64,000 bases of DNA. Source: Octopus vulgaris (lineage: Eukaryota). The DNA is taken from contig OX597834.1 in assembly GCA_951406725.2 (NCBI GenBank), positions 28,086,001 through 28,150,000 on the forward strand, in the 5' to 3' direction. The notes below the pieces were generated by a model. It saw nothing but the letters and a program-made list of their open reading frames with translations, made no database searches and was not told where the DNA came from. The first letter of the stretch is position 1, and each line of letters begins with the position of its first letter. A program made the translations under genes and the position numbers. Shown in pieces: positions 14,405-14,864 of the stretch.

Positions 14405-14863
14405 GTGACGCATATTTGCCATTTGAATATGGCTAACCCCTAAGGGTGGATGCTACTGTAGTTTGTAGCCCCAGGAAGATATCTCCTCCAGCTGGCTATA
14501 GACACACTATCTGTGTCCTCTCAGTATTTGTGAAGGGGAGTCATCCTCCCCGTCTTCAACTCATGATACACACGGACCCGAGTTTCAAGGTGTTTACCTT
14601 TCATCAGCGTGTGCCAATCATGGTTGTCGACGAGAAGTCAGCTCCCTTCACAAATACATATACTTTTTCCAGTGTCGATTGACACTGATATTGAAAAAGT
14701 GAAATCAAACAATGATAAATCTCAGAGCGAGTTATAAACAGTAGCGGTAACACATCGTGACGCATATCTGCCATTTGAATATGGCTAACCCCTAAGGGTG
14801 GATGCTACTGTAGTTTGTAGCCCCAGGAAGATATCTCCTCCAGCTGGCTATAGACACACTATC

Positions 14864-14864
<1 letters not shown>
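14405..14864 (-). mobile_element. Same family, ~1.3 copies of a 352-bp monomer embedded in (TA)n
   Basis: gtgacgcata recurs at 14405 and 14757; nearly identical to 11022-11460. Confidence 0.78.
14569..14613 (-). ncRNA. Type I hammerhead ribozyme, canonical core (identical to 11179-11223)
   Basis: Same 45-nt motif in a second copy of the ~352-bp repeat. Confidence 0.9.

Follow-up and report, generated by a model that had tools for sequence, protein, structure and literature searches.

Animal non-LTR retrozymes, described from coral, mussel and axolotl (PMC7229834; this and the other reports cited below are drawn on in part), are built from self-paired units of about 170-400 nt with a GC content below 45%, each bearing a type I hammerhead ribozyme that has a 2-bp stem III and a tetraloop. 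The units are repeated head to tail with at least two hammerheads, contain no ORF, and occur in genomes that also harbor Penelope-like elements (PLEs). Their dependence on PLEs was proposed in the same work, and later work, mainly on vertebrates, argued for it on the strength of pLTR homology and co-occurrence, with the mechanism left open (bioRxiv 2026.07.22.740005). In the portions of both reports considered here, the enzyme that spreads animal retrozymes and the use of circles as templates are likewise left open.

PLEs have been characterized from their insertions and biochemically. Their hallmarks include partial tandems, an inverted 5'-truncated copy, and a one-sided tail of 30-40 bp (bioRxiv 2021.04.23.441226). 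In an anole PLE, this tail equals the distance between two internal reverse transcriptase (RT) start sites, and the protein, modelled as a dimer, introduces nicks into AT-rich DNA on both strands and extends each of them. In vitro this element works mostly on uncleaved RNA, and its hammerhead mutants still transpose (PMC11167929).

The window analyzed here, a 64,000-nt stretch of the Octopus vulgaris genome (GCA_951406725.2, contig OX597834.1, forward-strand positions 28,086,001 to 28,150,000), contains two copies of a 352-nt element that belongs to the known class of animal non-LTR retrozymes. This retroelement is non-autonomous and young, bears a hammerhead and is highly structured. Like its described relatives (PMC7229834), the 352-nt unit is self-paired and repeated head to tail, has a GC content of 44% and no ORF, bears a type I hammerhead with a 2-bp stem III and tetraloop, and resides in a genome with PLEs; its length, GC content and pairing all fall within the range of the class. 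Taken as a whole, the analysis makes it probable that this is a dispersed, non-coding hammerhead retrozyme copied by a Penelope-like enzyme from internal starts, and that the template was a 352-nt circle.

Two retrozyme insertions and their hammerheads

Both insertions lie on the minus strand. The longer, here called copy 2 (14405..14864, 460 nt), holds 1.3 units, that is, unit positions 63-352 followed by 1-170, where position 1 is the first base after the hammerhead cut; it is flanked by (TA)n on both sides, and its 3' end falls at a fixed site, site A. Copy 1 (11022..11461, about 440 nt) holds 1.25 units (positions 76-352, then 1 to about 160); its 3' end lies beside (TA)n some 10 nt short of site A, and its 5' end abuts a long inverted repeat. 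The original prediction had described longer-than-unit, almost identical copies of a young family with periods of 352 and 354, and this was borne out: the repeated segments of copy 2 (14405-14512 and 14757-14864) are 98% identical, the period of 354 in copy 1 stems from a 2-nt insertion, and the two insertions share 97.2% identity over 461 nt. The unit is non-coding and 65% paired (GC 0.44), and among the window ORFs none of at least 150 aa overlaps either copy. Each copy carries a single hammerhead, so neither is able to excise a monomer; these 1.3-mers are single-arm products, and end products rather than sources of circles.

Several other features of the window deserve mention. The two hammerheads share an orientation and lie 3390 nt apart (11185-14574), and cleavage at both could release the intervening part of a read-through transcript; for a family of a few hundred, such proximity of two young copies is unusual. 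A 266-bp MITE-like element with long inverted arms and TA on either side (11462-11727) abuts the 5' end of copy 1. The window also contains a sister-family insertion (2117..2571) that is 74-77% identical and has two inverted arms and a hammerhead core with the U3-A8 variant, as well as a 5'-truncated, minus-strand copy of another sister family (17079..17222; 81%, unit positions 68-212) lying between microsatellites. A sister retrozyme family with a period of about 356-358 and a U3-A8 core (L153-L182) numbers 3455 first-look candidates in the genome. Other short tandem units occur at 574-1119 and 2606-3150 (286-287 nt, twice) and at 45893-46303 and 52179-52591 (137 nt, three times), and the motif scan found no hammerhead in either kind. 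An ORF at 21605-22348 has a zinc-knuckle-like motif and resembles LINE ORF1, with no Pfam match. Motif matches on the minus strand at 42600-52750 mark exons of what is probably a small CTD phosphatase-like gene; the one piece sent to Pfam gave no match. The retrozymes lie about 28 kb beyond the last coding exon of this gene, on the same strand. Generic repeat finders run on the window missed the unit, their output being swamped by microsatellites.

Scanned for the motif on both strands, the window yielded exactly two type I hammerheads, both on the minus strand, at 14568..14614 in copy 2 (core CUGAUGA at 14607, predicted cut 14575|14574) and at 11179..11223 in copy 1 (core CUGAUGA at 11217, predicted cut 11185|11184). 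Each comprises a stem I of 7 or 6 bp (7 bp in copy 2), a 5-bp stem II, GAAA, and a predicted cleavage at GUC^CGUG. The earlier description of a perfect canonical hammerhead held for the intact core and for GUC^CGUG, but not for stem III, which has only 2 bp with a UCGG loop and is predicted to be unformed in the monomer (p about 0), nor at the level of Rfam, where the hammerhead models gave no gathering-score match in the window and only two chance matches at E up to 10. A 2-bp stem III is the usual animal form and not a self-sufficient hammerhead. The stem III 8-mer is self-complementary or near-palindromic, with a duplex energy of -10.3 kcal/mol, and a self-complementary arrangement of this kind works as a dimeric hammerhead. 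In sister families the stem III loop varies yet stays palindromic or nearly so, and some of these families have the known U3-A8 core swap.

Stem I is extended by a predicted rod (14524..14657, minus strand) that is closed by a 14-bp stem (14524-14537 with 14644-14657) and derives from both minimum free energy (MFE) and covariation. The pairings foreseen for the unit, namely the 14-bp stem (11134-11147 with 11254-11267 in copy 1), catgat/atcatg, caac/gttg and the hairpin cagtgtc-gatt-gacactg, were all located and form in the circular MFE structure. That the unit is highly structured was likewise confirmed by its circular fold, at -130.3 kcal/mol versus -87.4 +/- 5.8 for 60 dinucleotide shuffles (z -7.4, 0/60 as low); the circular fold of the opposite strand gave z -5.4. 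Two-sided changes affect 20 of 46 pairs, a count that 0/500 shuffles reached and that compares with 2-9 in slid controls; the set consisted of nine hand-picked related sequences from several families, one of which supplied the structure, and the covariation is to be read as support for the putative rod, not as a probability.

Insertion ends across the family and the search for a Penelope partner

The assembly as scanned (2.8 Gb, 227 contigs) holds 239 exact hammerhead matches, which form three subfamilies; a 24-mer close to the unit 3' end has 629 exact matches. Insertions were mapped at 135 places, and four were dropped for want of a 50-nt, 88% segment; the 131 analyzed were partly selected for length, with two segmental duplicates and two LINE-split insertions counted twice. 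The original prediction had read the end points of the copies as those of a circular or tandem template, and had looked to a comparison of genomic copies for circularly permuted ends. That argument fails. The ends of the window copies differ slightly (3' at 170 and about 160; 5' at 63 and 76), but across the family 195 of 211 outer 3' ends fall at two fixed internal sites, 97 at site A (about 170) and 98 at site B (about 215-219), with 16 elsewhere, and random circular permutation of the ends was rejected. Only the 5' ends vary, and these are scattered. Most of the site A or B ends (161/195) run into at least three TA units.

Two inverted arms are present in 80 of the 131 insertions. Among these, 67 combine an A end with a B end, one has two B ends, none has two A ends, and 12 have an unclassifiable end; where both ends could be classified, one end of each kind was therefore present in 67/68. 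No target duplications flank the retrozyme copies. In copy 2, the interval between site B (unit 215-219, about 14712-14708) and site A (unit 170, 14757) is the approximately 45-nt "tail" (14708..14757, minus strand). Sites A and B would be RT initiation sites: one A and one B end per two-armed insertion is what a Penelope tail derived from internal RT initiation would leave, and fixed two-site 3' ends beside (TA)n make copying by a Penelope-like RT/GIY-YIG enzyme likely. The family shares with EN+ PLEs (PMC11167929; bioRxiv 2021.04.23.441226) the partial tandems, the inverted 5'-truncated copy, the one-sided tail, AT or microsatellite targets, and a hammerhead upstream of the start sites. It is thus very probable that the retrozyme copies were made by PLE-type integration, and the 67/68 end pairing is genomic evidence in favor of the two-site, two-strand model that the anole PLE displays in vitro.

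The genome contains a young autonomous PLE (L064:244-5460; G000:C6:133.34 Mb) with an intact 781-aa RT and GIY-YIG ORF that includes a CxxC linker, an upstream ORF of about 460 aa, a pLTR with a minimal U3-A8 hammerhead-like motif, and a (TA)n target. Its copies have two end classes about 40 nt apart in (TA)n, with one of each in 3/3 inverted copies; the tail of this candidate is thus about 40 nt versus about 45 nt in the retrozyme. No sequence common to the unit and this PLE was found, and in tblastn searches its protein matched nothing in the window; among 102 retrozyme loci it matched 3, in no case as a pLTR. A PLE similar to the unit was found at none of 50 GIY-YIG loci, 150 of 6136 GIY-YIG candidates having been scored, and 0/16 PLE 3' regions were clearly above shuffles against the unit. 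One candidate partner, L034, was not accepted: its alignment was diffuse, and its score of 56 compares with a maximum of 54 among shuffles. Three loci at which the unit runs into a longer body were also rejected as partner PLEs, the body having proved to be a LINE insertion. The retrozyme copies do not have the architecture of an autonomous PLE, namely an RT and GIY-YIG ORF between pLTRs. According to the original prediction, copies always ending in fixed termini attached to a coding PLE would have spoken against it; fixed termini were found, and attachment to a coding PLE was not.

A Tx1-like LINE in the retrozyme unit

At three loci the unit gives way to a different sequence, a 5.3-kb LINE. 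It encodes a CCHC ORF1 and an APE-RT-zf ORF2 (zf-RVT), and it may be called Tx1-like from its 35% identity to the Xenopus Tx1 149-kDa protein. Its 19-bp target (unit 294-312) is unoccupied in both window copies, at 14615..14633 in copy 2 and 11225..11243 in copy 1 (minus strand), and is duplicated in occupied copies elsewhere. A search with the LINE 3' end gave 547 candidates, 40 of which were scored and 30 fetched; the query came from a retrozyme-embedded copy, so the result describes one subfamily. The 21 closest of the 30 fetched copies run into unit position 294 in 19 cases, into the target and a second LINE in one, and into unrelated DNA in one, while three of the nine more distant copies precede sister-family hammerheads and six do not. 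Complete reading of 23 LINE loci placed the LINE 5' end at unit 312, with the 19-bp duplication, in 13 of them and at the matching site in families of about 70% identity in three; two are truncated LINEs in a host, four have odd structures, and one is off-target with its own 13-bp duplication. At L231, a tandem LINE insertion occupies the same site.

The hosts belong to different subfamilies and are built differently, and in three cases the opposite arm spans a LINE-free target; the LINE insertions are therefore independent. The LINE lacks poly(A) and terminates behind an AATAAA just ahead of the hammerhead, whose intact cut site follows 59 nt later; the hammerhead may serve as its 3' cutter. 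At L228, positions 243-305 upstream of the LINE carry the alleles of another subfamily while the rest of the host does not, which suggests one case of a co-transcribed retrozyme leader, with about 70-100 nt of imported upstream sequence. A more distant branch of the same LINE (L210-L212) is followed by another common sequence and likely uses a different fixed target.

The RNA template, its alternatives, and comparison with known systems

The form of the template was approached through an unbiased set of 71 insertions picked only by the 3' 24-mer, comprising all listed matches on C1, C2 and the first 73 Mb of C3. Here arms are truncated at a more or less constant hazard of about 0.09 per 20 nt, which does not jump at the cut site; 4 of 52 arms stop 8 nt or less from it, and 21 of 106 are longer than one unit. 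The hazard rises in the second round, about three arms being expected beyond 700 nt in this set and 0-1 seen. The longest arm measures 823 nt (2.3 units), and none passes three cut sites. All 125 junction crossings are free of indels. Tandem units differ at 7/226 subfamily sites (null 31%) and paired arms at 18/357 (null 38%), so low an arm-to-arm difference that both arms usually come from one RNA or subfamily. Contigs of four runs guessed to be RNA (X1, X3, X9, X10) cover 30/30 bins and the unit-to-unit joint, with depth lowest over the hammerhead, although the joint is also present in DNA and such contigs carry no strand, ends or level. A circular RNA is the best reading of the template, and one that we favor with moderate confidence; a circle would be a competent template because internal initiation needs no RNA 3' end. 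What had been proposed as a candidate circular retrozyme is thus a structured hammerhead retroelement, with the circle as its best-supported reading only, and on grounds other than end points.

The same PLE-driven element could instead be copied from linear, uncleaved read-through RNA of a few multi-unit masters, circles being absent or a by-product. This is a serious alternative, if a rather unlikely one. Indel-free junctions and agreement between units would follow from it equally well. The one PLE examined in vitro acts mainly on unprocessed RNA (PMC11167929), stem III is weak, cleavage in vitro failed for 8 of 9 dimer retrozymes from Xenopus (bioRxiv 2026.07.22.740005), no arm exceeds 2.3 units, and two hammerheads occur in 9/195 arms. 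It also demands, however, that each of the three subfamilies have its own master of at least 2-2.4 units, and at most two same-strand hammerheads in a row, hence no array, were seen among the 100 listed of the 239 exact matches. A transduced 5' flank was not found, since among 48 flanks the shared sequence was limited to a single segmental duplicate, the LINE, and a repeat match of 49 nt. Moreover, 5' truncation would shorten the family in every generation, and the covarying core and rod imply selection on cleavage. Were the template instead a series of linear cut-to-cut monomers, with the RT jumping from one to the next, arms would be expected to begin at the cut; a few do start within a few bases of it (L003, L020, L092, L141, L150), but there is no excess of ends there (4/52), the 125 junctions lack indels, and alleles are common within an arm (219/226). 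Monomer jumping is already largely refuted and is very improbable.

The two other alternatives concern what moves the element. If the unit were the pseudo-LTR of an unfound autonomous PLE, the copies would be truncated PLE ends; all end features are indeed PLE features, and the GIY-YIG candidates scored amount to 150 of 6136. Arms longer than one unit nonetheless always run into another unit and never into an ORF, and the only coding inserts found are the LINE with its target duplication, which leaves this reading just as improbable as monomer jumping. Least probable of all is mobilization of the retrozyme by the Tx1-like LINE rather than by a PLE, in SINE-like fashion or as a composite of the two. 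The association is close (19/21 nearest LINE copies), and odd structures occur at 4/23 loci, among them a LINE in both arms (L219) and a truncated LINE without upstream host (L220, L222, L225). Set against these are retrozyme copies with no target duplications and no 3' tail common with the LINE, a 19-bp LINE duplication that lies inside differently built hosts, and opposite arms that cross the target without the LINE in L228, L229 and L232. Occasional PLE-driven carriage of a LINE-retrozyme composite is possible (L219, L225, L220, L222).

Under the preferred reading of PLE-type copying, probably from a circle, rare two-hammerhead copies would be transcribed and self-cleave, probably as dimeric hammerheads via the palindromic stem III, and the monomers would be ligated into circles. 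By analogy with PLE biochemistry, the PLE protein would then nick both strands of a (TA)n tract, and cDNA would start at unit positions of about 170 and 215, needing no RNA 3' end. Each arm would run backwards through the cut site without a scar and stop at a variable point, the pattern displayed by the copies, which would yield partial tandems along with two-armed inverted insertions whose two ends differ in class. The Tx1-like LINE has inserted many times independently at unit 294-312, with an intact hammerhead just 3'. It is tempting to go further, although we regard this extension as doubtful, and to propose a three-tier system in which a Penelope dimer copies a ribozyme circle from two internal sites, one per nicked strand, while the LINE homes into DNA copies of the circle, borrowing upstream sequence as promoter or leader and the hammerhead as a 3'-end cutter that replaces the poly(A) tail, much as R2 uses rRNA co-transcription. 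Such a system, if true, would explain the retrotransposition of an RNA without a 3' end. The family yields predictions at the nucleotide level, namely that synthesis starts at about 170 and 215, with one start on each strand, that a single RNA supplies both arms, and that the ligation site is read through, and a young PLE with intact 781-aa ORFs is at hand for testing them.

Among known systems, plant LTR retrozymes have a type III hammerhead in LTRs and a 4-bp duplication, whereas the octopus unit has a type I hammerhead and a terminal repeat whose length varies with truncation. The animal retrozymes of PMC7229834 are much closer, and in one octopus subfamily the basal pair of stem II is U-U, as it is in axolotl HHR_Amex2. 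Unlike these, the octopus copies are dispersed and mostly shorter than two units, with no arrays seen among the matches listed; repeats with at least two hammerheads exist at the level of the family (the 9/195 arms), the window copies having one each. Circular RNA, a feature of animal retrozymes, is in the octopus family a predicted product. No cephalopod retrozyme was found in the literature searched, and in an octopus repeat paper (PMC13282606) a term search of the text and one supplement found hammerhead, ribozyme and retrozyme absent. The literature searched likewise gave no tail analysis of a retrozyme and no Tx1 element targeting one.

Tx1 families that target other transposons and satellites are known, including Tx1L in Tx1D, Tx1-Mar and Keno (PMC4494074). 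The guest LINE resembles them in its two ORFs, its fixed target in another repeat and its tandem same-site insertion (L231), and differs from those described there in having a hammerhead retrozyme as target, no poly(A) tail, and the upstream import of L228; it extends the range of Tx1-type targets to a ribozyme element and offers for study a site-specific integrase system that is new. In contrast to EN+ PLEs (PMC11167929; bioRxiv 2021.04.23.441226), the retrozyme is non-coding, carries its hammerhead complete and within a long rod where they have a minimal motif, has a tail of about 45 nt rather than 30-40, and has no sequence in common with any PLE examined. The fixed two-site 3' ends and inverted arms belong to the octopus family and are not described for animal retrozymes in the portion of PMC7229834 considered here. 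The conclusion of PLE dependence is the same as in bioRxiv 2026.07.22.740005, but the evidence in octopus is insertion anatomy, pLTR homology being absent. The family is of value for this anatomy, a link between retrozymes and two-site initiation by PLEs, and as the target of a LINE.
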